The notes under the pieces were generated by a model. The model made no database searches. It saw only the letters and a program-made list of their open reading frames with translations, and had not been told where the DNA came from. A stretch of DNA of 64,000 nt from Methanobacteriota archaeon (lineage in GTDB: Archaea > Thermoplasmatota > Thermoplasmata > SG8-5 > DAIRED01): NCBI GenBank assembly GCA_043799545.1, contig JAZDNO010000020.1, positions 1 to 64,000 of the forward strand. Direction: 5' to 3'. Below, piece after piece: positions 16,927 through 40,456 of this stretch (its first letter is position 1; each line of letters begins with the position of its first letter). A program made the position numbers and the translations under genes.

Positions 16927-18177
16927 GTGAAATCAAAAACCGCAAAACGCTACCTTGGCGGTTTCTCCCTGAATGTGATTCTCATAGGGGCAATCAGCTT
17001 CCTCACGGATGCCAGCTCGGAGATGATTGTCCCGATTCTGCCATTGTACCTCATCGGCATCGGCGCACCCATGGTCGTAATCGGGCTGATCGAAGGCGCG
17101 GCCGAGAGCACTGCCAGCATCCTCAAGGCTTTGTCTGGCACGTGGTCGGACAAGATGAAGAAGAGGCGGCCGTTCATGCTGGCTGGCTACTCGCTCTCCA
17201 CCGTTTCGAAGTTCCTCTTCGTGGCGACGACCGCTTGGTGGCAGGTCGTGGGACTCAAGATATCGGAGAGGGCGGGAAAGGGCATCCGCGCCGCGCCGAA
17301 GGATGCTCTGCTGGCCGAGTCATGCGACCCGGATGTGAGGGGTAGAGTCTACGGATTCCACAAGGCAATGGATACGGCTGGCGCTGCATTCGGGGTGGTG
17401 CTGGCGCTGGTCGTCGTCGGCTTCCTGGCGCTGGGTTACAGGGAGATATTCCTCCTTTCGGCCATACCGGCCACCGTTGCGGTGATCCTGATTTTCTTCA
17501 TACGCGAGTCCGAGCCCGTCGAATGCGAGCCGCTGCCGAGAGAGAAGAAGCGCATCTTCGAGGGGTTCTCGAGGTTCCCACCGGAGCTGAAGCTATTCAT
17601 GGTTGCCATGTCAATCCTCTCCGTGACCTCAGTAATGACCTCGTTCCTGATCATACTGGCGCGAGACGCCCATGCTAGCCAGCTGCAGAACATCCTGATG
17701 TACCTCGGATTCAACGTGGTCTACTTCGCGATTTCTCTCCCTGCGGGTTCGATATCAGACAAGGTCGGAAGGTATCCAGTAATTCTCATTGGTTACGCGG
17801 CGATGATGTGCATGTTCGTCGTTGCCATCGCAGGCAGCTTTGTCAACGAAGGCCTCGATACTGACGAGACGACACTCCTGGCTTTGTCCCTCGCACTGGC
17901 CTCATTCCTGATTTACGGCCTATCATACGCGTTCACCCAAGGCGTCCAGAAGGCCTTCGTCGCGGACCTGTGCCCCAAGGACCTCAAGGGCACCGCGATG
18001 GGTGTTTACAACATGTCGATAGGGATAGCCGCCCTGCCGATGGCGCTCATCGGCGGAACGCTCTGGACCGTGTACGGTTCCTGGGCGACATTCGCGTTCG
18101 GGGCCGTCGCCTGCGCGGTCGGGCTTTCGATGCTCGCGGCGCTGGCCGTTCGAAGAGGGTTTTTCCGAACCGCTTGA
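16927..18177 (+). CDS. MFS transporter
   Basis: About 12 hydrophobic segments; GTWSDKMKKRRPF and GSISDKVGRYP MFS loop motifs. Confidence 0.9.
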   Translation: MKSKTAKRYLGGFSLNVILIGAISFLTDASSEMIVPILPLYLIGIGAPMVVIGLIEGAAESTASILKALSGTWSDKMKKRRPFMLAGYSLSTVSKFLFVATTAWWQVVGLKISERAGKGIRAAPKDALLAESCDPDVRGRVYGFHKAMDTAGAAFGVVLALVVVGFLALGYREIFLLSAIPATVAVILIFFIRESEPVECEPLPREKKRIFEGFSRFPPELKLFMVAMSILSVTSVMTSFLIILARDAHASQLQNILMYLGFNVVYFAISLPAGSISDKVGRYPVILIGYAAMMCMFVVAIAGSFVNEGLDTDETTLLALSLALASFLIYGLSYAFTQGVQKAFVADLCPKDLKGTAMGVYNMSIGIAALPMALIGGTLWTVYGSWATFAFGAVACAVGLSMLAALAVRRGFFRTA

Positions 18178-18292
18178 ATCAGGCGTTGAAATAAAATCCT
18201 CCGCGGGAAATCCGCTTTCGAAAAGTTAGTATATATAGTTTTCCTTCAGCATGTACATGCATCCACGTTTCTTGTGTAAGTTTTAAATAGCA

Positions 18293-18577
18293 ATGTACCG
18301 TTACCGTTATATGCGCTCCAACGGGAAGGGTGTTTACGGCGCAGGCGACCAGCTTCATTTTATCGTGACCGAGGATTTCGTGGAGACAGCGAACGAATTC
18401 ATGAGGTTCTGCAGGGCGAACTCCATCAACACGTCGGCCGCGATACGCACGGCGATGTCCGATTGGCTGGAGAAGAAGACCATGCGGGACAAGTGGACGT
18501 CCCAGATGGATACCGACAATCCGTTCATGCGGAGCTTCGCCGAGGAATACGAGCGGCGCGTGCTTAAGGAGGAGTGA
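18293..18577 (+). CDS. Ribbon-helix-helix-like regulator
   Basis: QLHFIVTEDFVET...FCRANSINTSAAIRTAMSDWL. Confidence 0.55.
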   Translation: MYRYRYMRSNGKGVYGAGDQLHFIVTEDFVETANEFMRFCRANSINTSAAIRTAMSDWLEKKTMRDKWTSQMDTDNPFMRSFAEEYERRVLKEE

Positions 18578-19392
18578 CCGTGATGGAGGTGGCGAGGAAG
18601 GTGTGCATCTGCGGCGACCCCGGCGTGGGTAAGAGTTCCCTGGTGAGGAGATTCGTCCTCCAGAGGTATGACGACAAATACCTGTCAACTCTGGGGACCG
18701 TGGTGTCGAAGAAATCAGTGGCAATCCCCCAGCTTGATTGCAACATGAGCCTCATGATATGGGACATCTCCGGACAGGCGGAGTTCAAGAGGATACACGC
18801 TTCTGCTTTCAGCAACTCGTCGGGGGGTTTTGTCGTTTACGACGTCCTTCGCCCCGAGACCCTGGAATCCGTGCAGGGCTGGATAGCGACGATGAGGCAG
18901 TGGGCGGGGGAGAAGGTCCCCATAACCATCCTCGCGAACAAAACGGACCTTCTTCCCAAGTCCGAGCGCCCACGCGCGGGGACGATGCTGGGATGTCCGA
19001 GCGTACCGACGAGCGCAAAGGCGGGGGAGAACGTCGATGACGCATTCCATTCCCTGGGAGAGGCCATAGCAAAACTGAACGGGATGCCGCCAATTCCGAC
19101 AATCGGCAATGCAAAAATCGAGGACCTCCCCGATAAATTCGAGAGTTCCGGCGAGCTGCTGGACTTCATCGCAATCAGCCTCTGCAAGACCCTCAAGGAC
19201 CAGGAGATGGGGATGCACATCCTCAGGAACCAGGTGACGAAATCCGGGATCGACTTCGTGCACATGCGGAAGGCCGACGCGGAGATGCTCGTCGACAGAT
19301 TGGGCGAAGTAGTCAAGGATTTCAAGGGCGGGCGAGAGGGGTCGGACATCAGGGTCAGGATGCACAGGGCGATAGAAAGGACCAAATGGTGA
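18574..19392 (+). CDS. Rab/Ras-like small GTPase with C-terminal helical extension
   Basis: G1 GDPGVGKS, G2 STLG, G3 WDISGQ, G4 NKTD, G5 SAK. Confidence 0.9.
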   Translation: MTVMEVARKVCICGDPGVGKSSLVRRFVLQRYDDKYLSTLGTVVSKKSVAIPQLDCNMSLMIWDISGQAEFKRIHASAFSNSSGGFVVYDVLRPETLESVQGWIATMRQWAGEKVPITILANKTDLLPKSERPRAGTMLGCPSVPTSAKAGENVDDAFHSLGEAIAKLNGMPPIPTIGNAKIEDLPDKFESSGELLDFIAISLCKTLKDQEMGMHILRNQVTKSGIDFVHMRKADAEMLVDRLGEVVKDFKGGREGSDIRVRMHRAIERTKW

Positions 19393-19396
19393 TTTT

Positions 19397-19888
19397 TTGG
19401 CAGAATACGTAAGGAAGGTCGTCCTGCTCGGCGACCCGATGGTTGGCAAGACCTCGCTCGTCCAGAGGTTCGTGAAGGACATGTTCGACGAGAGGTATCT
19501 CAGCACGATAGGGGCGAAACCGTCAAAGAAGGTCGTCAAGTGCGGGGGGCACACGGTCTCGCTGATGATATGGGATCTCGCGGGACACAGCTACGGGCTG
19601 CGCTCCGGTTTCTACGCTGGGGCGAAGGGCGCCCTGCTGGTGTGCGACATCACCCGCCGGGACACCTTGAACTCGCTCAACTCGTGGTACTCCGCGCTCG
19701 CGAAGGAAGTCGGGGATGTGCCGGCCATAGCCCTGGTGAACAAATCCGACATGGACGAGCGCGAGTTCGGACTCGATGAAGCCGGCGTCCAGGGTTTTCC
19801 GACACTTCTCACGAGCGCGAAAACCGGGGCGAATGTGAACGAGGCGTTCACACAGTTGACGGAGGCGGTTATCCGTGCGCGCCGCTGA
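19397..19888 (+). CDS. Rab/Ras-like small GTPase
   Basis: G1 GDPMVGKT, G2 STIG, G3 WDLAGH, G4 NKSD, G5 SAK. Confidence 0.9.
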   Translation: MAEYVRKVVLLGDPMVGKTSLVQRFVKDMFDERYLSTIGAKPSKKVVKCGGHTVSLMIWDLAGHSYGLRSGFYAGAKGALLVCDITRRDTLNSLNSWYSALAKEVGDVPAIALVNKSDMDEREFGLDEAGVQGFPTLLTSAKTGANVNEAFTQLTEAVIRARR

Positions 19889-19916
19889 GCCGGTCAGGAA
19901 CCGGGGTTTCTTCGTC

Positions 19917-20336
19917 ATGTACAGCGACGGGGTAAGGGCCCTTCAGAAGGAGCTCAACGCGGTCATGGGGAGGGACCTGGGGAGGAGCGTTCTTTTCAGG
20001 TTCGGCTTCAGATGCGGGAAGACCAGCGCCAAGGAGCTGGGCCTCGTGGGGCAGGGCAAGAAGGCCCTGGTGTACCTGAACGAGGCTTGGATTGAGATTG
20101 GCCTCGCGCGGCCCGTTTCCATCCGCGAGAGATCCGGCGTTGTCGAGGTCGTCCTGTCCAACTCACTCGAGGCGTCGCACGACGGGACTGGCTGCGATTT
20201 CACAAGGGGATTCCTCGGCGGCATGTACTCGGAAATCACCCACGTTCCCCACCACTGCGTCGAGCGCGAGTGCGTCTCGTTCGGGGGGGAGAGGTGCGTC
20301 TTCGTAATCCGGGAGGCGGAGAACGGGGGAAAATGA
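19917..20336 (+). CDS. V4R (4-vinyl reductase) domain protein
   Basis: CDFTRGFLGG...VERECVSFGGERCVF; stop overlaps the next ATG (ATGA). Confidence 0.85.
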   Translation: MYSDGVRALQKELNAVMGRDLGRSVLFRFGFRCGKTSAKELGLVGQGKKALVYLNEAWIEIGLARPVSIRERSGVVEVVLSNSLEASHDGTGCDFTRGFLGGMYSEITHVPHHCVERECVSFGGERCVFVIREAENGGK

Positions 20337-23300
20337 TGGGTGCGTTGGGAAAGGCATTGCTCATCGTCGTGGCGCTGGCCCTGGCCGCTCCCGCGTTCCA
20401 GGCTCCCCACCGGCAGAACCCCGCCGAAATCCCGCAAGCGCAACCCTCCTTCGCAGGCTCGCAGTGGCCGACGGTATCGAGCATCGGGCCATTCCCTCCG
20501 GCACCCGCTTCAAAGGCGAACGCCAAGAAGACGCTGTATCTGCACGACGATCCGCCTTGGCAAAATATAAACGATGATTATGATTCCTTGAACACTACTG
20601 CCCCGACAACCGTGGCCCTGTCGGATTTTGACAATGATGGGCAACCTGGCCTTTCCATATTGGAGAACTGGGACAATCTTGGTGGCGGCTTCGGGCACGT
20701 CAACCACGACAGGTACCAGTATTGGAACCTGACCCCCGTATTGGCTTCGGACCTAAGGATATCCTATTTGAATATGACCTTGTGGATTAGCACCACTTCC
20801 CAGGATGTAACAAACGAATTGAAGGTTGAATTGACAGATAACACACTAAAAACACTTGCCACGCCGAATGCAAACGTTTTCGCCAGCAGGCTCCTCACAG
20901 GAATAAACTGGCCTACCCCGGCGGGTAATTTCCAGAAATACTCTTTCGACCTGACTATGTTCAATGGAACCCAGGTGATTCCCAAAGGTAATAGAACGAT
21001 GCTCATCATCTATCGAACAGATAACAACAATAACAAGGACCTGCAAATCGCATACAATACAACAATCTACCCATCCCACCTCAACCTGACGACCGACACA
21101 TACGTCGACGTGAACTGGACCCAGACCTGGAACCTCACCGCCCAGACCGGCGACTTCTCGGTCGGCGAGGACGCGCGCATCGTCGCGAACGTCACCGACC
21201 CCTTCGGTTCTTACGACATCTCTGGGGCGACAGTCAACGTCACAGGCCCCGGCGGCGTCACGTACGTTCCCACCACCCCGATGGGCCTCAACGCCACGGA
21301 CCCGGCGGATCCGTCCGGCTGGAAGCATTTCAATTACACGTTCGAGCACATCCCCGCGCCTGGCATGTATAAGGCCGTGGTAACGGGCATCGAGTCCAAC
21401 GGCGTGACTTCGAACATGACGGCCTTCTTCAACGCCACCGGCTCCGCGAACCCGCTGGACCATGTCGAGCTGATGCCGATGTTCGCCTACCCTGCCAACA
21501 ATCCCGTGGCCGTCGCCGGCACGCTCGCAGGCTACATGGCCGTCGGCTGGAACGACGCGGGCCAGACCGAGAAGAACTACACCTGGGAACCCGAGTGGGA
21601 CACGACGGACGGGCTCGGGACAGTGGCCAACAAGGGGGGGAGCGCCTCCTCCGGCTTCACGGCTGACTACGTTGCCGGAGCGTCGCCCGGGTACGACAAC
21701 ATCACGGTCGCCAACGCGACGGCTGCGCCTGTGAGTTCCTGCGTACTCGTCACGCCGCTGGTGCTGGATCATATCGAACTCGCTCCGCTCGACCCGTTTC
21801 CAGGGGCCAACGTGCTTGCTGGGGGCACTCTAGGATATACCGCAATCGGCTGGGACGACGCTGGTGGAACTATCAAGAACAGCACTTGGATTCCCTTGTG
21901 GGATACGAGCGCCGGTCTCGGTTTGCCTGTTAACCCTGGTGGGGACTGGACCGCCGGATACACTATAGATTACTCGGCCGGTCTCGCCACTGGCTATGAC
22001 AACATCACAGTCGCTTGCGGCTCCGTCGGCAACGAGTCCTGCTTGAGAATCGTCGCGAACCCGCTGCACCACATCCAGCTGACGCCTATGTTCGCTTTCC
22101 CCCTCAACAACCCGATCGCAGTCGGCGGGACGACTGGCACCTACACCGCAGTGGGCTGGAACGATGCCGCAGAGGCGGAGAAGAACCTTACATGGAGCCC
22201 TGTCTGGGGCACGACGAACGCCCTCGGAACTGCCAGCGCCACAGGCGGGAGCGCCATCACCGGGTTCACTGCATCCTACACAGCCAGCCTCGCGCCTGGA
22301 TACGACAACATCACCGTGACCGATTCCACGGCGGCGGGCGTCGTCAGCGCCAGCTGCGTCAAGGTCGCCGACAACCCTCTGCTCCACCACATCCATCTGA
22401 CGCCGAAGGCCGCATATCCGTCGGCGGCGGACGTAGGGGCCGGCCTGACGCTCCCAGGCTTCATCGCGACAGGGTGGGACGACGCGGCAGAGACGAAGAA
22501 GAACCTGACGTGGGCGCCCATCTGGGGCACGTCGCACGGCCTCGGCACGGCCGGGAACCTCGGCGGCGGCGCGGCTTCGGGATTCACAGCCGACTACGCG
22601 GCCCTCGGCATCCTCGGCATGGACAACATCACCGTCTCGTGCGACTCGGTGTCCAACAGGTCTTCCATCAGGGTCGTGGCCGGCCCGCCTGCGGCGATGG
22701 CGTACGTGTCGGGGAACAACCAGATGGGCAAGGTCGGCTCGACACTGCCACTCCCGCTGGTCGTGCGCGTGACAGACCAGTTCGGCAATCCAGTGCAGGG
22801 GGCGGCCGTCAACTGGAAGTTCTTCGGGGGTCCCGATGGTTCGACGGGGCAAGCGCTGCTGCCAGGTAGCAACTCGACGGACGCCGCGGGGCGCTCGGGA
22901 ACGTGGCTCACGCTCGGGAGCGGGGTCGGGATTTACGGCGCCAACGCCTCGACGGACCTAGGGCTCGCCGGGGAGCCAGTCAACTTCACGGCAACTGCGA
23001 CGAGCGCGGCGCGGGACATCGTCATCGTCAGCGGGGACGGCCAGACCGCACCGGCCGGTACCGCCCTGCCGAAGCAGCTCGTCGTGGAGGTCAGGGACAT
23101 CGCGGGGACGCACGTCGGCTCAGGCGTGAAGGTCTGGTTCAACGCGACCACCGCAAACCTCGCAGGGGATGCGTCCATCACGCCAGCAAATCCGGTCCAG
23201 ACCGATCCAGACGGAAGGGCGTCCGTCTGGCTTCGCCTCGACACGCTTCCAGGAACGAACTACCTGACGGCCGAGATGACTGCTGGCGGGACGAGGAGAG

Positions 23301-25036
23301 TGACTTTCACTGCCATCGGGACGGCTCCCGGGGTCTCGCCCGTCCTCGCAACCGTTGCCGAGACCGTGGTCGGGGGGGACATGGTCACCTACATCCTTCA
23401 CGCCGACAACACAGGCGACGGCGCGGCCGTGAACGTCTGGATAAACGATACCCTGCCCCTTGGGATGGAATACGTCCACGACAGTTCCGCGCCCGCCGCA
23501 AGCGTCTCGGGCAGGGACGTTGCGTGGTTCTTCGATGAGATTGCCCCGGGAGCGATGTCGTGGACCATGACCTGCCAAGCTCAAGCCACGGTAGTCGACG
23601 GCACGGTTCTGTCCAACCGTTTCAGCGTCGAGTACGGCGACGAGGCCGGCCGACGGCTCCCGAGAGTAGAATCCAACACGGTGGACGTGACGGTCATCAC
23701 GGAGGAGAGCGACAACATACCGCCGACGATAGAGGGCGTCCCAGACTTGTACGTCCACTACGACTGGGATTATCACATCGACCTGTCGCCGTACGTCTGG
23801 GACCCGGACACCGAGCCAGGGGACCTCACAATCATCCTCTCCGACCTTGTGAGCGCCAGGGTGAACCTGCACAACAATCTGGCAATTATACTGAATTACA
23901 GCCGCTCCCTCCTCGGGTCGACGCAGAAATTAAACGTCACAGTCTCGGACGGAGGGGGCTCAGATTGGCAGCTGATACTTGTCCACGTCACCGACGACTT
24001 CCCCCCTGAGCTGCTGCAGCCGCTCCCGGACATCGCCCAGCATGAGGACACGGTCTCCTACCCGTTCAACATCACGGAGCACTTCTTCGACAGGGACGGT
24101 GACTCCCTGTTCTACACATATGGCGAGAAGCACGTGAACATAACGTTTCTCTGGAACTTCACCGTGCGCGTTCTCCCCAACCTGAACTGGTTCGGCCTTG
24201 AGCGAGTGACGTTCCGCGCCTCTGACCCGACCGGCGCACTCGTGGAGAGGACAGTCAATGTCACAGTCTCGCCGGTGAACGACCTCCCCGCCATCGGCGC
24301 CATCCCGGACCAGGCTGGCAAGGTCGGAAAGGCATGGATGATGGACCTGTTCCAGTACGTCAGCGACGTCGACAACGCGCTATCCGAGCTGAGCGTGACG
24401 ACCGACAGCGGCTCCGCCACGGCGAACGGCCTGAACGTCACCTTCAGATTCGCACGGGCTGTCGAGGGGGACATAGTGACCATCACGGTCTCGGACGGAG
24501 CCGGCCAGGCATACGGGCAGGTGAACGTCACCGTCGCGGCGAGCGGGGCGCTGGACCCGGTCTGCCTGGTCACGGCGCCGCTGGCTGCCGTCGCGCTCGC
24601 GGCCCTCGTCGTCATGCTCGTATACAGGCGGCGCAACAGGCCTGCCATCGAGAACATTTTCGCAATCTACAAGGACGGGACCCTCCTCGCTCACGAGATG
24701 AGGAAAGAACTGCCGAACTTCGACAAGGACATCTTCACAAGCATGCTGCAGGCCATCACAGACTTCGTGAAGGACTCGTTCCAGGACCGGAAGGACTGGA
24801 CCCTCGACAACCTAGAGTTCGGCGGAAGGAAGATACACATAGCCAGGAGCGCGACGGGCAACCTCAGCCTGGCCGTCGTCTACCAGGGGGGCGACATCGG
24901 ACTAAAGAAGCTCATGGATGCGCTGATTGCGGACATCGAGGGCACGCACGGCGAGCTGCTTGCCGACTGGGACGGCAACCTGACGAAGATGTTCGGCATC
25001 CAGACGATCGTGTCGAAGGTCTTCGACGACAACTGA
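20333..25036 (+). CDS. Large surface protein: signal peptide, four ~100-aa Ig-like repeats, Big_1-like, DUF11-like and cadherin-like domains, TM, cytoplasmic longin-like domain
   Basis: Hydrophobic N-terminus; repeats L(D/H)H(I/V)xLxP...GW(N/D)DA...GYDNITV; VSGDGQT Big_1-like motifs; TM LAAVALAALVVMLVY-RRR; C-terminal IENIFAIYKDG...FVKDSF...LEFGG. Confidence 0.85.
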   Translation: MMGALGKALLIVVALALAAPAFQAPHRQNPAEIPQAQPSFAGSQWPTVSSIGPFPPAPASKANAKKTLYLHDDPPWQNINDDYDSLNTTAPTTVALSDFDNDGQPGLSILENWDNLGGGFGHVNHDRYQYWNLTPVLASDLRISYLNMTLWISTTSQDVTNELKVELTDNTLKTLATPNANVFASRLLTGINWPTPAGNFQKYSFDLTMFNGTQVIPKGNRTMLIIYRTDNNNNKDLQIAYNTTIYPSHLNLTTDTYVDVNWTQTWNLTAQTGDFSVGEDARIVANVTDPFGSYDISGATVNVTGPGGVTYVPTTPMGLNATDPADPSGWKHFNYTFEHIPAPGMYKAVVTGIESNGVTSNMTAFFNATGSANPLDHVELMPMFAYPANNPVAVAGTLAGYMAVGWNDAGQTEKNYTWEPEWDTTDGLGTVANKGGSASSGFTADYVAGASPGYDNITVANATAAPVSSCVLVTPLVLDHIELAPLDPFPGANVLAGGTLGYTAIGWDDAGGTIKNSTWIPLWDTSAGLGLPVNPGGDWTAGYTIDYSAGLATGYDNITVACGSVGNESCLRIVANPLHHIQLTPMFAFPLNNPIAVGGTTGTYTAVGWNDAAEAEKNLTWSPVWGTTNALGTASATGGSAITGFTASYTASLAPGYDNITVTDSTAAGVVSASCVKVADNPLLHHIHLTPKAAYPSAADVGAGLTLPGFIATGWDDAAETKKNLTWAPIWGTSHGLGTAGNLGGGAASGFTADYAALGILGMDNITVSCDSVSNRSSIRVVAGPPAAMAYVSGNNQMGKVGSTLPLPLVVRVTDQFGNPVQGAAVNWKFFGGPDGSTGQALLPGSNSTDAAGRSGTWLTLGSGVGIYGANASTDLGLAGEPVNFTATATSAARDIVIVSGDGQTAPAGTALPKQLVVEVRDIAGTHVGSGVKVWFNATTANLAGDASITPANPVQTDPDGRASVWLRLDTLPGTNYLTAEMTAGGTRRVTFTAIGTAPGVSPVLATVAETVVGGDMVTYILHADNTGDGAAVNVWINDTLPLGMEYVHDSSAPAASVSGRDVAWFFDEIAPGAMSWTMTCQAQATVVDGTVLSNRFSVEYGDEAGRRLPRVESNTVDVTVITEESDNIPPTIEGVPDLYVHYDWDYHIDLSPYVWDPDTEPGDLTIILSDLVSARVNLHNNLAIILNYSRSLLGSTQKLNVTVSDGGGSDWQLILVHVTDDFPPELLQPLPDIAQHEDTVSYPFNITEHFFDRDGDSLFYTYGEKHVNITFLWNFTVRVLPNLNWFGLERVTFRASDPTGALVERTVNVTVSPVNDLPAIGAIPDQAGKVGKAWMMDLFQYVSDVDNALSELSVTTDSGSATANGLNVTFRFARAVEGDIVTITVSDGAGQAYGQVNVTVAASGALDPVCLVTAPLAAVALAALVVMLVYRRRNRPAIENIFAIYKDGTLLAHEMRKELPNFDKDIFTSMLQAITDFVKDSFQDRKDWTLDNLEFGGRKIHIARSATGNLSLAVVYQGGDIGLKKLMDALIADIEGTHGELLADWDGNLTKMFGIQTIVSKVFDDN

Positions 25037-25072: not shown

Positions 25073-25690
25073 TCAAATCCTATGTTTCAGGTAGTCGGCG
25101 ACTGCCCTGTCCACCGGCTTCGTGGAGGTTATCTCGTAGCATTTCTTCAACATCTTCTTGATGGTCTGCGGGTCCTTCGGGGCGCCATCCAGCTTCCCTA
25201 TCAGGTTGCCCAAATCCTCCTTGAAGTTCCAGGGGAAGATGAACCAGCGCCAGTTCTCCTTCTTCACCTCGACGCCGTAGAAGTCCGGGACGGTCTTCGA
25301 GTGGTTGATGTGGAGCAGGGTAGCGCATTTCACGTCCGCCGGACCCTTCGATTTGACGTGGTCTATCGACAGCTTCAGGCTTTCCCCTGTGTCGGTGATG
25401 TCGTCGACCAGCAGCACCTTCTTCCCTTTTATGTCGACGGCCAGCTCTTGGACGAGCTTCGCCTTGTTGTCCGTCCGCGCGGTGATGCCCCAATGCTCGA
25501 CCTTTATCGAGAAGAGGTTCTTGCAGACGAGCTGGTCGCAGAGAATCCTCGCGGGGACCCAGCCGCCGCGCGTGAGCCCAACGACGACATCGGGCGTATA
25601 CCCAGATGCCTCCATCTTGCAGGCGACCTTCTCTGCCCAATGGTCTATCTCGCTCCACGTGACGACCTTGCACCTGATGTCTTCTGGCAT
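25073..25690 (-). CDS. Purine phosphoribosyltransferase (HGXPRT-like)
   Basis: VVGLTRGGWVPAR; VLLVDDITDTGES PRPP-binding motif. Confidence 0.9.
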   Translation of the reverse strand: MPEDIRCKVVTWSEIDHWAEKVACKMEASGYTPDVVVGLTRGGWVPARILCDQLVCKNLFSIKVEHWGITARTDNKAKLVQELAVDIKGKKVLLVDDITDTGESLKLSIDHVKSKGPADVKCATLLHINHSKTVPDFYGVEVKKENWRWFIFPWNFKEDLGNLIGKLDGAPKDPQTIKKMLKKCYEITSTKPVDRAVADYLKHRI

Positions 25691-25759
25691 AGCGAATCCC
25701 TCGCGATGCCTAGCCGTATGGAACTCGTGAATATAACTTTATTCGATGCCGCGCTCGCA

Positions 25760-26140
25760 TCAGGCCTTGTCCAGCTCGTCGTATATCTGCCTGGCAACCT
25801 CGTCGGGCGAGCGGTCGACGTCGTGCTCCCAGAAGCGCATCACCTTCCAACCGGCGTCGGCGAGCCTGTGGTTCTCCTGCTCGATGTGGGCGCTGCAGCG
25901 TGTGGGCTCCGGGCCGAAAGGCTCCGCGACGTTGGGCGAGTCTTCCGGGCGCTCCCGCATCCCCTCGTAATGCTCCGGGCAACCGCAGCCGTCCGCGCAG
26001 GGGTCGACGAAGATAGCCAGCTTCTGGGCCGGGAAGGAAATCGGGACGCGCAATCCAATATAGGTCCGGTCCTCCTCGAAGTATACCTCGCGCTCGGCCA
26101 GCTCGTCCTTCAGGATGCGGAGGAAGGGGTTCTCGACCAT
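25760..26140 (-). CDS. Vsr/DUF559-like endonuclease
   Basis: KLAIFVD...LADAGWKVMRFWEHD. Confidence 0.7.
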   Translation of the reverse strand: MVENPFLRILKDELAEREVYFEEDRTYIGLRVPISFPAQKLAIFVDPCADGCGCPEHYEGMRERPEDSPNVAEPFGPEPTRCSAHIEQENHRLADAGWKVMRFWEHDVDRSPDEVARQIYDELDKA

Positions 26141-26183
26141 GATACTTCAATGTCGCACGCCATAGATAATCGTTTGGAATGGC

Positions 26184-26693
26184 TCAGTATTCGAACTCTT
26201 CTTCCCCCAGGCGGACGCCGCGCTTCCATCCAATCTTATCAAGTCCCCCGAAATCTATGTAAAGGTACACCTCTCCCAGCTTGTCGAAACCCGCGTCCCT
26301 GAAAAAAGATATCGCGCTTGCATTCCTCGCCACTGGCTTCACGCAGAGCGAGTTCAGGCGGCGCTCCCTCGCGGCCTTGACGACTGCCGCGAGGAGCGTC
26401 CGCCCTATCCCCCCGCGACGGCGGTCGCGTGCAACGACCGCCGGTTCGACCAGCCAGCCATCTCCCGATTTCTCGAGGCCAGCCATGCCGACTACAGCCG
26501 CCCCGTCCACCGCGAGGAAAACATTCTCGGCGCCGACCTTGGCAAGGTGATCGTCGAAATAGTGGCCGGGGTCGTCCCCGCCGATTGTCTGGTCTCCGTA
26601 GATATCTCGGTGATGCTGTGTGAGTTCGACCCATAACTTCCTGCAGCTCTCTAGGTCGGAATCCGTGTAAGTCCGTATCGCAACGCTAGTCAT
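26184..26693 (-). CDS. GNAT acetyltransferase
   Basis: VVARDRRRGGIGRTLL acetyl-CoA motif; start MTSVAIR overlaps the upstream stop. Confidence 0.85.
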   Translation of the reverse strand: MTSVAIRTYTDSDLESCRKLWVELTQHHRDIYGDQTIGGDDPGHYFDDHLAKVGAENVFLAVDGAAVVGMAGLEKSGDGWLVEPAVVARDRRRGGIGRTLLAAVVKAARERRLNSLCVKPVARNASAISFFRDAGFDKLGEVYLYIDFGGLDKIGWKRGVRLGEEEFEY

Positions 26694-37408: not shown

Positions 37409-40400
37409 ATGCCCGTCCTGGAAAAGGCCTGCCCGTCTCCCGACCATCAAAGCGGACGGACAGTTTTCGTTGGGCGGGAGCGCGAGCTCGGATTGCTGGA
37501 CGCCGGCCTCGACAGACTCTTCCGCTCGGCCGGTTCTACTTTCCTCGTGACTGGTGAGCCAGGCGCGGGAAAGACCAGACTCGTTGAGGAGTTGAAGGGA
37601 AGAGCGCTCTCGCGCGGTGCGAAGGTAATCTGTGGCTCGGCCGCGCAGGGCAATCAGAGCCCATTCCATCTCTTTTCAGGCATCATGCCCGGAGACAGCG
37701 CCGAAGAGCAATTTTCCGAGCGCGAAAGCGTCGGATTCGCCCAGGTCTTCGCGATAGACAAGGGCGGGTCCAAGGTGGCGGAGGCCGGTGCCGGAGGCGT
37801 GGATGGCCTGAGCGCCGACGCCATGGCAGATGTTATCGCGGCAGTGCAGTCGTTCGTGGGGGATTCGCTGGGGAAATCCAGCGGGGCTGGTGCGGGGCTG
37901 GGGCGCCTGGAGTACGGTGGCAAGACCATTTTGCTGGAACACGGAGCCGGTTTCGTCATAGCCGGCATAGTCCCCAGGGGCGAGAGCGAGAGGATGCGGC
38001 TGGCCATGAGGAATACCCTGGCAGGCATCGAGTCTAGCGGCGGTGGCAGGGCAGCAATAGAGGCGAGGCTGAGCGAACTCGCCGCCTTAAAATTTATAGT
38101 CAGACGCGACCTGGGCGAGGTGAACATCGAAAGAGAGAGGATACGCGTTGCGGACATGTTTCTGGAAAAAATCTCGGCGTTCGCTTCCGAAAAACCCGTA
38201 TTGCTGGTGCTGGAGGACCTGCACTGGGCGGACGCGCCTTCCTTGCTCGTGCTGCAGTACCTTGCCAGGGTCGTCGTGGAACTGCCGTTGATGGTAGTCT
38301 CGACCGTCAGGCCGTCGGAAGACGCGAAGAGGATGGAGGCGCTCTCGCAGTCCATGGCAGCCGCGGGATGCGCGAGGATAGACCTCCGGGAACTGGACGA
38401 ATCCGCGGTCGCGTCGCTCGTGGAGGGCATCATAGGGGCGAACGATTTCACACCGGACTTTCTGTCGGGCTTGCAGAGACAATCCGGGGGCAACCCGTTC
38501 TTCGTTGTGGAGTTGCTCGGGCAGATGGGGCGCGACGGCGCAATCGTGTCGCGCGACGGCATAAGCAGCATCTCCATAGAGAACTTATCCATCCCTTCTT
38601 CAGTCGAGGATGTCGCGCGCAGGCGCCTGGACTCGCTGGAGCCGGAGGAGGTCGCCATCGCCGAATACGCATCATGCATAGGCCAGGAATTCGATGTCGA
38701 AGTTGCGACATCCTTCCATTCCGCCACCGACGCCGCTGGTTCGCTGGACGGTCTGGTCTCGATGGGGATTTTATCGCGTTCCGGAAACAGGCTTGCGTTC
38801 GCCCACGCCATCATACACAGCGTCATCTACGCGGACATAGCCGCGAGGTGGAAGTCGACGCACCACAGGAGCATAGGGCTTTTCCTCGAATCGAAGCACG
38901 GCGCCGATTTGGACGCTGTAATCTACGACGTCGCGAACCAGTTTGCCAGAAGCAACGAGCACGCCAAGGCTTCCGGATATTGCGTTATGGCCGCTGAAAA
39001 GGCCGAAGGGTCGTACGCGCTCGAGCTTGCGAAAGATTTTTACGGGAAAGCGATGGCATCGTCGCATGCGGCCGGAGGCTCCTTCGAAACCGTCGAGCGC
39101 AAGGCAGACCTATTGGAGCGGTTGAGCGGCGTTTGCGCTGTCCTCGGGGAGTTTGACATCGCGATAAGATATTTGGACGAGGCCTTGCCGCTTGCCAGCA
39201 GGGGCTCTGCAAGGGTGAGGGTTCTGAGGAAGTACGGTTACGTGTACAATAGAATGGGCAAGATAGACGAGTCTATAACCAAACTCGACGAGGCGCTCGT
39301 AGCGCTCGAAGTGAAGTCCGGTTCCGAGTACGGCATCATATGCACGACGCTGGGCAACAATCTGTGGTACAAGGGGGAGGTCGACAAGGCCCTTTCTTAC
39401 ACTGACAAGGCAATAGAGATATTCAGCTGCGACGAGCCAGACGAGAACGAGCTTGCGGACGCCTTCCGGGTCAAGGCTTTGATACTCAGCGGGACTGGCA
39501 AGCACGATATGGCGCTCGACGTCTATCGCCGCAGCCTTGATATCTGGACCAAGTTGGGGAACGAGCGACGCATGGCGGCGATGCTAGGCAATATGGGCAA
39601 CGTGTTTGCGGAAAAAGGCGAGTTCGCAAAATCTCTCGAATATTACGAGAAGGGCCTCGTCCTCCTCCGCAAGCTCAGGCACAAGCACAACATCGCGGTC
39701 ATGACAGTCAACATGGGGGCGACGTATTACTCGCTGGGAAATATCGATAAGGCGATAGAATTTTTCAAGGAGAGTGGAGACGCTTTCGGAAAGATCGGAG
39801 ACGCATTCGGGCTAGCGACCACGTTTCTGAACACCGGTGCAATCTACCTCCAGTTCGGAGAGTATGACGAGGCCAAAGATGTGCTCGTCAAAGGCCTGGC
39901 TATTGCGGAAAAAAACCATATCACAGGGACTGCGTCGAGCATACTCGAAGCGCTGGGGGGCATCTTTGTCGAATCCAAGGATTACGCGAAGGCCGAGGAA
40001 TTCTTCGCACGGTCTTTGGAAATAGCGAAGAACGGAAGGCTAATCGGAATGGTTGCGAGCGGGCATACGAACATGGCCGATATGCATTCCGAGATGCGTA
40101 ATGTTGAAAAAGCAATCGAATGGGCGAATGAAAGCTTGCGCATATCGGAGGAGAATGGCCTGGACAGGGAGGGTGCCATTGCCAAGATAGCACTGGGAAG
40201 GGCTCGACTTCTCGCGGTGGACTTGCCGAAGGCGGCAGAGTTGTTCGAGTCTGCCAAGACCGCATTCGAAGGGATGGGCGAACGGACCGAGGTTGCGATA
40301 ACGGAATACTTCCTGGGTTCTGTGTACCGCACCAATGGAGAAGCGGCGAAGGCAAAGGGATTTTACGAAAAGGCGCTCGCCACTTTCGAGGAATGCAAAT

Positions 40401-40456
40401 TCAAGGTGTGGGCCGCGAAGACTAGAAAGGAATTGGACGCATTCAATCGGGAATGA
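37409..40456 (+). CDS. STAND-type AAA ATPase with inserted longin-like domain and C-terminal TPR array
   Basis: FVGRERE; Walker A GEPGAGKT; Walker B LVLEDLHWAD; GGNPFF; many TPR-like repeats; insert of about 37736-38036. Confidence 0.85.
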   Translation: MPVLEKACPSPDHQSGRTVFVGRERELGLLDAGLDRLFRSAGSTFLVTGEPGAGKTRLVEELKGRALSRGAKVICGSAAQGNQSPFHLFSGIMPGDSAEEQFSERESVGFAQVFAIDKGGSKVAEAGAGGVDGLSADAMADVIAAVQSFVGDSLGKSSGAGAGLGRLEYGGKTILLEHGAGFVIAGIVPRGESERMRLAMRNTLAGIESSGGGRAAIEARLSELAALKFIVRRDLGEVNIERERIRVADMFLEKISAFASEKPVLLVLEDLHWADAPSLLVLQYLARVVVELPLMVVSTVRPSEDAKRMEALSQSMAAAGCARIDLRELDESAVASLVEGIIGANDFTPDFLSGLQRQSGGNPFFVVELLGQMGRDGAIVSRDGISSISIENLSIPSSVEDVARRRLDSLEPEEVAIAEYASCIGQEFDVEVATSFHSATDAAGSLDGLVSMGILSRSGNRLAFAHAIIHSVIYADIAARWKSTHHRSIGLFLESKHGADLDAVIYDVANQFARSNEHAKASGYCVMAAEKAEGSYALELAKDFYGKAMASSHAAGGSFETVERKADLLERLSGVCAVLGEFDIAIRYLDEALPLASRGSARVRVLRKYGYVYNRMGKIDESITKLDEALVALEVKSGSEYGIICTTLGNNLWYKGEVDKALSYTDKAIEIFSCDEPDENELADAFRVKALILSGTGKHDMALDVYRRSLDIWTKLGNERRMAAMLGNMGNVFAEKGEFAKSLEYYEKGLVLLRKLRHKHNIAVMTVNMGATYYSLGNIDKAIEFFKESGDAFGKIGDAFGLATTFLNTGAIYLQFGEYDEAKDVLVKGLAIAEKNHITGTASSILEALGGIFVESKDYAKAEEFFARSLEIAKNGRLIGMVASGHTNMADMHSEMRNVEKAIEWANESLRISEENGLDREGAIAKIALGRARLLAVDLPKAAELFESAKTAFEGMGERTEVAITEYFLGSVYRTNGEAAKAKGFYEKALATFEECKFKVWAAKTRKELDAFNRE

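Follow-up and report, generated by a model that had tools for sequence, protein, structure and literature searches.

Small GTPases that act with partners of the roadblock and longin folds have a central role in the membrane traffic of eukaryotes; elsewhere, such pairs have been discussed mainly for Asgard archaea. The core of the eukaryotic TRAPP complex, which is built from Bet3-family and longin subunits, serves as a GEF (guanine nucleotide exchange factor) for Rab1/Ypt1, and in the Ragulator-Rag system a membrane-anchored roadblock/longin platform recruits a pair of unlike GTPases. It is established that longin and roadblock dimers are GTPase platforms (PMC10933270, PMC3521125). In bacteria, Wuichet and Sogaard-Andersen (2015) reported that the Group 1 Rup system comprises an uncharacterised domain ('Unc') without a Pfam match (PMC4316618), together with a GTPase that lacks the catalytic Gln (PMC4316618). 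Single Rab-like GTPases were already noted in Thermoplasmatales in 2016 (PMC4915359), and, according to unpublished observations mentioned in a 2026 preprint, GTPases are often accompanied by profilin-longin-like domains. In this current study, we analysed a 64,000-nucleotide stretch of DNA (hereafter the window; contig JAZDNO010000020.1 of assembly GCA_043799545.1, positions 1 to 64,000) from an archaeon of the Thermoplasmatota. Five head-to-tail genes on its plus strand (18293-25036) encode, in this order, a protein resembling ribbon-helix-helix (RHH) proteins, a long and a short Ras/Rab-like GTPase, a V4R protein, and a very large surface protein that ends in a cytoplasmic tail. The operon is of a known kind, a prokaryotic small GTPase with a partner of the roadblock/longin superfamily; what is unusual here is that the longin domain is fused to a receptor and that a GTPase pair, a V4R protein, and an RHH-like protein accompany it. 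We read the operon, with about even confidence, as a receptor-coupled small-GTPase signalling module.

The surface protein (20333-25036, plus strand; 1,567 aa from the likely ATG at 20333, which overlaps the V4R stop codon) is predicted to be a type I membrane protein, with a signal peptide, an ectodomain, one transmembrane helix, and a cytoplasmic tail. In a hydropathy scan, hydrophobic stretches were seen at residues 21 and 1428 when the protein is read as 1,588 aa, and the transmembrane helix was placed at 24551..24619 (plus strand), where it is followed by RRRNR in positive-inside fashion. The tail domain (~130 aa; 24632..25033, plus strand) was modelled with AlphaFold2 from a 24-row alignment (predicted local distance difference test [pLDDT] 84.8; predicted template modelling score [pTM] 0.77), and all statements on the fold made below rest on this one model of the archaeal tail. 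As assigned by DSSP, the model contains strands at residues 11-19, 24-29, 66-69, 72-78, and 84-91, and helices at 38-57, 97-117, and 123-138; this order, bb-a-bbb-aa (b, strand; a, helix), is the longin permutation and is opposite to that of roadblock. When the model was searched with Foldseek, matches were obtained to adaptor (AP) sigma subunits (E 3e-5 to 1e-3), TRAPP Bet5/Trs23, Sec22b, Ykt6, Mon1-Ccz1, and LAMTOR. In VIA-align comparisons, Sec22 ranked first (Z 13.1, root-mean-square deviation 2.3 Å over 117 residues), followed by CPLANE/Fuzzy (12.0), VAMP7 (11.4), sedlin (10.9), and a Lokiarchaeota longin domain (10.6). AP-3 sigma and Ykt6 fell within Z 10-11.4, SRX and Mon1-Ccz1 were also ranked, and the TRAPP longins sedlin, synbindin, and Bet5/Trs23 scored between 9 and 11; the roadblock protein MglB, by comparison, reached only Z 9.0 with partial cover (residues 9-118). 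Given the topology of the model and the matches of both structural searches to solved longins, we conclude that the tail, as modelled, is a longin-fold domain, as an earlier note on this DNA had proposed for the segment behind the transmembrane helix. No Pfam or NCBIfam model matched the tail at E<=0.01 (Robl_LC7 gave E 0.066, and Fuz_longin_1 gave E 0.034 in one of 24 members), and no description of the domain as longin-like was found in the searchable literature.

The ectodomain of the surface protein falls into two parts. When orthologues were compared by BLASTP, they aligned only from residues ~650-765 through ~1560, at 43-49% identity, so that the conserved proximal part, including the tail, comprises at least ~800 residues. 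The proximal ectodomain (~22620-24550, plus strand) carries Big_1, DUF11, and cadherin-like/tandem-95 repeats; over the protein as a whole, Pfam and NCBIfam searches gave matches to DUF11, Big_1, Big_9, cadherin-like, and tandem-95 repeats. The distal ectodomain (~20333-22620, plus strand; up to ~760 residues) does not align with orthologues. This distal half (20333-22620) includes four repeats of ~115 aa.

The same domain was also found in bacteria. When genomes, one per species, were scanned with a 6-row alignment of the tail, loci were recovered in Thermoplasmatota and, among bacteria, in cyanobacteria, Acidobacteriota, Desulfobacterales, Planctomycetota, Thiothrix, Gemmatimonadota, and Nitrospirota; the archaeal tail matched the bacterial domain by tblastn at E 1e-10 to 1e-14. 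Archaeal and bacterial members are united over their whole length by one signature, in which conservation is highest along the first helix (MLTAIQDFV.DSF); in the tail, this signature reads F.I..DG.L.AH...D.D...ML.AI.DFV.DSF...L.FG...DWDG. The bacterial domain lies at residue ~160 of proteins of 500-650 aa that end in a C-terminal OmpA domain and whose public names are 'OmpA family protein' or none. At 40 of 46 bacterial loci, a gene for a 165-aa Ras-family GTPase follows within 300 bp of the domain gene, and V4R is absent. Moreover, a coiled-coil protein precedes the pair, and genes for a histidine kinase, a cyclase, or a SpoIIE phosphatase come after it. We conclude that these bacterial loci are the Group 1 Rup system. 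At the Calothrix locus L099:8770-14351, for example, genes for a coiled-coil protein, a longin-transmembrane-OmpA protein, and a GTPase are followed by one for a histidine kinase, and at the Desulfonema locus L086:8647-16266 the same three genes are followed by those for a cyclase, a SpoIIE phosphatase, and a hybrid kinase. A small protein encoded after the Rup GTPase (L099:11809-12210) showed no relation, by hhalign, to the profile of the V4R protein or to that of the C-terminal extension of the long GTPase described below.

The archaeal operon thus resembles the Group 1 Rup system in that a homologous cytoplasmic domain of a membrane protein is coupled directly to a small Ras-family GTPase. 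A second likeness is tentative: the bacterial GTPases often lack the catalytic Gln at the end of the G3 motif, which is replaced mostly by Glu, and the short GTPase of the archaeon has His there, but its orthologues have His, Gln, or Val, and the long GTPase keeps Gln. The two differ in layout, however: the Rup protein runs from cytoplasmic domain through transmembrane helix to periplasmic OmpA domain, whereas the archaeal protein runs from giant ectodomain through transmembrane helix to C-terminal domain. They also differ in partners, since Rup loci encode a single GTPase together with the coiled-coil protein and have a kinase, a cyclase, or a phosphatase as output, whereas the archaeon has two GTPases, the V4R protein, and the RHH-like protein; neither a coiled-coil protein nor a kinase or cyclase output gene was found in the archaeal operon by Pfam search and inspection of its flanks. 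The longin fold was modelled for the archaeal member only. Because the same tail domain stands beside Ras-like GTPases in so many bacteria, the operon is probably a receptor-to-GTPase module rather than a TRAPP-like one.

The size of the domain family was examined by an exhaustive HMMER search of 1.84 billion cluster representatives, which retrieved 1,817 representatives at E<=1e-3, of which 475 also passed the stricter threshold of E<=1e-10. In the commonest layout, seen in 74 of the best 150 relatives, a hydrophobic segment directly precedes a C-terminal copy of the domain. The domain also occurs in two or three copies in giants without a transmembrane helix, as a tandem pair in four-transmembrane proteins, and on its own in short proteins, and in two cases it is fused to an RHH-like N-terminus. 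A word-based search had returned no stand-alone homologue of 77-245 aa; the HMMER search found many. In the proteins P0023, P0035, P0048, P0052, and P0060 (~550-580 aa), three or four hydrophobic segments are followed by two tandem longin-fold copies, an arrangement that would provide the platform as a ready-made pseudo-dimer. Among related genomes, 29 of 31 encode the domain, with up to 23 copies per ~2-Mb genome of the same order. In the genome studied here, 17 genes carry it, and about nine of their products are AAA_16 (STAND)-TPR proteins of ~1,000 aa in which the domain occupies residues ~90-260. One of these AAA_16-TPR proteins is encoded in the window itself (37409-40456, plus strand), and others are on contigs C1, C8, C22, C25, C30, and C31 of G000. 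In this genome, the longin-fold domain is therefore common to surface receptors and soluble STAND sensors.

Both GTPases matched the Pfam models Ras and Roc (E 1e-24 to 1e-32), and their G1, G4, and G5 motifs are intact. The long GTPase (18574-19392, plus strand; 272 aa; Ras 1.1e-29, Roc 9e-24) has the G-domain motifs GDPGVGKS, WDISGQ (G3), NKTD, and SAK, and its best matches in the Protein Data Bank (PDB) were Rab1, Sec4, and Thor-Rab (E ~1e-20 to 1e-23). The short GTPase (19397-19888, plus strand; 163 aa; Ras 2.9e-32) was closest to a Thorarchaeota Rab (1e-25), followed by Sec4 and Rab43/2/1. Accordingly, the solved structures nearest to both are Rabs (Thor-Rab, Sec4, Rab1, Rab43, Rab2, and Rab35; E 1e-25 to 1e-21), and relatives are named 'Rab family GTPase' at NCBI. 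Matches to Pfam Gtr1_RagA were weak and confined to the G domain. No C-terminal prenylation motif (CC, CXC, or CAAX) was present in either protein; the short one ends in VIRARR and the long one in IERTKW. In this 2-Mb genome, ten Ras-like GTPase genes were counted.

In the short GTPase the G3 motif is WDLAGH, with His replacing the catalytic Gln. The earlier note had recorded this replacement; it is present here, but it is not fixed, since the motif ends in His in this operon and in those of G001 and G002, in Gln in G003, G014, and G015, and in Val in G005. Gln-to-His was therefore rejected as a defining trait of the short GTPase. Among archaeal long GTPases, Gln was kept in all but one of 36, the exception ending in Thr. 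In a FastTree tree of prokaryotic sequences only, the operon-type short GTPases formed one divergent clade, and a sister relation of this clade to the bacterial Rup GTPases was not resolved. In the orthologous operons of G003 and G014, a third short GTPase gene is located upstream of the RHH gene (L023:6402-6902, plus strand; L024:10913-11404, minus strand), with G3 ending in Leu or His.

The long GTPase also carries a C-terminal extension of 85 aa (19075-19389, plus strand), predicted to form four helices. When folded alone, the extension gave four helices with a pLDDT of 85.5. It is kept in paralogues and orthologues, and a sample of 300 genomes from the phylum yielded it in 10. A Foldseek search against the PDB returned nothing below E 2, and for this reason we give the extension no fold name. 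A second type of module (G000:C10:198337-202416; L026; L027) combines a long GTPase having the four-helix extension with a longin-fold protein. In relatives, the latter is a protein of 1,540-1,580 aa without a transmembrane helix, with two internal longin-fold copies and matches to CARDB and DUF5915; in the genome studied here, it is a convergently encoded protein of 1,082 aa with one copy near its C-terminus.

With both partners described, the locus can be compared with two further systems. It is like MglA-MglB and the actinobacterial conservons (CvnA-D) in that a membrane sensor is part of the conservon combination. Unlike MglB, however, the archaeal partner has the longin permutation and not the roadblock order (Z 9.0 for MglB vs 13.1 for Sec22); moreover, its longin domain is fused to the receptor itself, and the GTPases are Rab/Rup-like, not MglA-like. 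The likeness to Ragulator-Rag lies in a membrane-tethered platform encoded together with two different small GTPases, one of which is possibly a poor hydrolyser. In contrast to the Rag proteins, the archaeal GTPases have no C-terminal roadblock domain, and the long one has a four-helix bundle instead.

The order of RHH gene, long GTPase, short GTPase, V4R, and tail-bearing giant recurs in five other genomes that span three families of the order. In G002, G003, and G014 it was seen in orthologous loci, and G001 and G015 were added from V4R-centred loci. As the same gene order is kept in these genomes, the arrangement is not a matter of chance, and the check on operon conservation that the earlier note had called for comes out in its favour. 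V4R loci of the order were also examined in their own right, and 23 of 27 had genes for a long and a short GTPase directly upstream. Most of these loci represent a second triad, consisting of a long GTPase, a short GTPase, and a V4R protein fused to DUF835. This triad is present in nearly every genome of the order (on contig C2 in the genome studied here), without a longin gene nearby.

The V4R protein (19875-20336, plus strand; 153 aa) matched Pfam V4R (PF02830) with 34.3 bits, above the cut-off of 31 (E 2.6e-8), and also XylR_N (2e-4); no TRAPP/Bet3 model was matched. Its profile retrieved the phenol-sensor domains of PoxR (4.7e-5) and MopR (8e-4), and MJ1460 (6.5e-4), from the PDB. All orthologues keep C107, E130, C133, and C141, and these residues line up with the C-E-C-C motif of PoxR and MopR, which we take to be a zinc site. 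Zinc binding is described for PoxR and Thor-TRAPPC3 (PMC10933270). Structural neighbours in the Atlas were clusters of V4R and DUF835-V4R proteins (template modelling score ~0.8), and no TRAPP/Bet3 cluster was among the nearest. By its sequence, this protein is a standard prokaryotic domain of the PoxR/MopR type with a predicted zinc site, and does not look specifically Bet3-like; the relation of V4R to Bet3 at the level of the superfamily is taken from the literature (PMC10933270).

The first gene product (18293-18577, plus strand; 94 aa, with an alternative start ATG at 18311) displays the strand-helix-helix pattern of RHH proteins. Among its orthologues, GDQxH...DF...N.S.A.R...W is invariant and the C-terminal motif YERxVLKE is conserved. 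A profile of the orthologues matched CopG/Arc/MetJ antitoxins best in the PDB, but weakly (E 0.056 and 0.82), and a low-confidence model (pLDDT 0.65) had CopG/RHH clusters as its structural neighbours in the Atlas (template modelling score 0.55-0.60). The RHH assignment is thus weak but consistent. In the relatives P0031 and P0066, this same RHH-like module forms the N-terminus of a fusion with the longin-fold domain, which argues that the two work together.

The five genes are packed tightly or overlap, as judged from the list of open reading frames (ORFs) and their translations. The long GTPase gene starts 4 nt before the RHH gene ends, and the V4R gene overlaps the short GTPase gene by 14 nt; the genes for the RHH-like protein, both GTPases, and V4R form a start/stop-overlapping set and are predicted to be co-transcribed. 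The ORFs and the Pfam searches agree with the parts list and the tight packing given in the earlier note. Upstream, beyond an A/T-rich gap of 115 nt, lies a gene for a transporter of the major facilitator superfamily. Read from the sequence, an A/T-rich, TATA-like stretch (agtatatatag; 18226..18246, plus strand) is a possible archaeal promoter, and no inverted or direct repeat of operator type was found in 18150-18320. Downstream, housekeeping genes run convergent to the operon, and no terminator-like site was found after it. A plus-strand ORF at 25082-26302 (406 aa, rich in Arg and Leu) was rejected as a gene and is regarded as a shadow of minus-strand housekeeping genes; the real genes beneath it include a phosphoribosyltransferase at 25073-25690. 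The G+C content of the operon is that of the genome at large. The closest public records were metagenome-assembled genomes of Thermoplasmatota/Thermoplasmata from groundwater and sediments, which bears out the view that the host is not an Asgard archaeon.

Three other explanations were weighed. In the first, which we consider unlikely, the longin tail would serve the GTPases as a handle for sorting or anchoring, by which they target, position, or turn over the surface protein, or shed it into vesicles. Analogues would be the SRX longin domain of SR-alpha with SR-beta, the longin SNAREs, and the sigma subunits of adaptors. The best structural matches of the tail (the longins of Sec22 and VAMP7, AP sigma/mu, and SRX) fit such a role, as does the mostly C-terminal position of the domain in large membrane proteins. 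However, a common fold shows no function, and the same domain is also carried by STAND-TPR proteins, which are soluble, and by RHH fusions. Moreover, the homologous bacterial systems end in outputs typical of signalling, namely a histidine kinase, a cyclase, or a SpoIIE phosphatase (PMC4316618).

A second explanation, that V4R and the longin tail form one TRAPP-like membrane complex that catalyses nucleotide exchange on the Rab-like GTPases, seems to us quite improbable. It is in its favour that V4R, a longin fold, and Rab-like GTPases occur together in one conserved operon, that the tail matches sedlin, synbindin, and Bet5/Trs23 in structure (Z 9-11), and that a longin-TRAPPC3 fusion is reported from Asgard archaea (PMC10933270). 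The combination of a V4R/Bet3-superfamily protein, a longin, and a Rab-like GTPase is itself shared with the TRAPP and Asgard systems, and a V4R domain with a zinc site also occurs in Thor-TRAPPC3 (PMC10933270). On the other hand, the V4R protein of this archaeon is nearest to the sensors PoxR, MopR, and MJ1460, whose zinc-site motif it keeps, and is of their type by sequence; there is one longin domain, fused to the receptor, and no soluble pair of the Bet5/Trs23 type; and the host is not an Asgard archaeon. Furthermore, the bacterial longin-GTPase systems lack V4R, and the V4R-GTPase triads lack a nearby longin gene. Because V4R is not specifically Bet3-like and because the longin-GTPase and V4R-GTPase couplings also occur separately, a TRAPP-like GEF is only partly supported. 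The earlier note had envisaged a surface adhesin that recruits a V4R/longin GEF-like complex to switch the GTPase pair; of this proposal, the transmembrane pathway from receptor to GTPase stands as the best reading, but the single TRAPP-like complex is not supported in that form.

The third explanation, a conflict or defence sensor in which a surface protein with a variable tip detects viruses or neighbouring cells and triggers a GTPase-gated response together with STAND-TPR proteins, is suggested by a distal ectodomain that fails to align between orthologues above a conserved proximal part and tail, by the ~9 AAA_16-TPR paralogues that carry the domain, and by the strong expansion of the family in this lineage (up to 23 copies per genome), but we give it little credence, as none of the five operon proteins matched a PADLOC defence model, no effector-type domain (nuclease, TIR, or protease) was found in the operon by Pfam search, and both the G+C content and the housekeeping neighbours are ordinary.

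We therefore return to the receptor-coupled GTPase module, for which the following mechanism may be proposed. The tail would dimerise, like other longin/roadblock platforms, and would dock one or both GTPases through the helix that is best conserved in it (ML.AI.DFV.DSF). Once the ectodomain is engaged or clustered, the GTPases might change their location or the nucleotide that they hold. Given that V4R follows the long and short GTPases at 23 of 27 loci, it may be the cognate partner of the GTPase pair, most likely a regulator or effector gated by redox state or by a ligand, possibly one bound in its cavity. As the likely output, the RHH protein would be a DNA-binding protein that is held at the platform or released from it, since in some relatives an RHH module is fused directly to the longin domain. 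Furthermore, the presence of 17 longin-domain proteins and 10 GTPases in a 2-Mb genome suggests that many receptors and STAND-TPR sensors feed few GTPases in this organism.

Several points weigh against this reading. A GTPase gene lies within 5 kb of only 8 of 34 archaeal tail-domain loci, and only 2 of the 17 tail-domain genes in this genome adjoin one, so the domain may have other partners. The role given to V4R is drawn from adjacency. The RHH assignment is weak, there being no Pfam match, a PDB profile match of E 0.056, and no operator-like repeat upstream.

Taken together, these data describe a longin-fold domain, matched here by no Pfam or NCBIfam model, that is joined to surface receptors in a non-Asgard archaeon and conserved with a fixed set of partners. 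They also offer a structural reading and a name for the bacterial Rup domain that was left open in 2015, and supply bacterial loci, the cyanobacterial ones among them, as candidates for genetics. Should binding be confirmed, the receptor tail, the two GTPases, V4R, and the RHH protein would constitute a defined set for biochemical reconstitution, and the origin of the longin-GTPase pairing would be placed well before eukaryogenesis. In the broadest view, which is speculative and as a whole rather doubtful, the longin-fold GTPase platform would be an old and widespread prokaryotic receptor-coupling domain, and not an invention of Asgard archaea or eukaryotes. Among Thermoplasmatota, a few Rab-like GTPase pairs, acting with a V4R partner and an RHH output, would receive their input through it from dozens of surface receptors and STAND sensors; such wiring would amount to an archaeal pathway in the style of G-protein signalling, and to a pre-eukaryotic combination of V4R, longin, and Rab-like GTPase that TRAPP may later have used.

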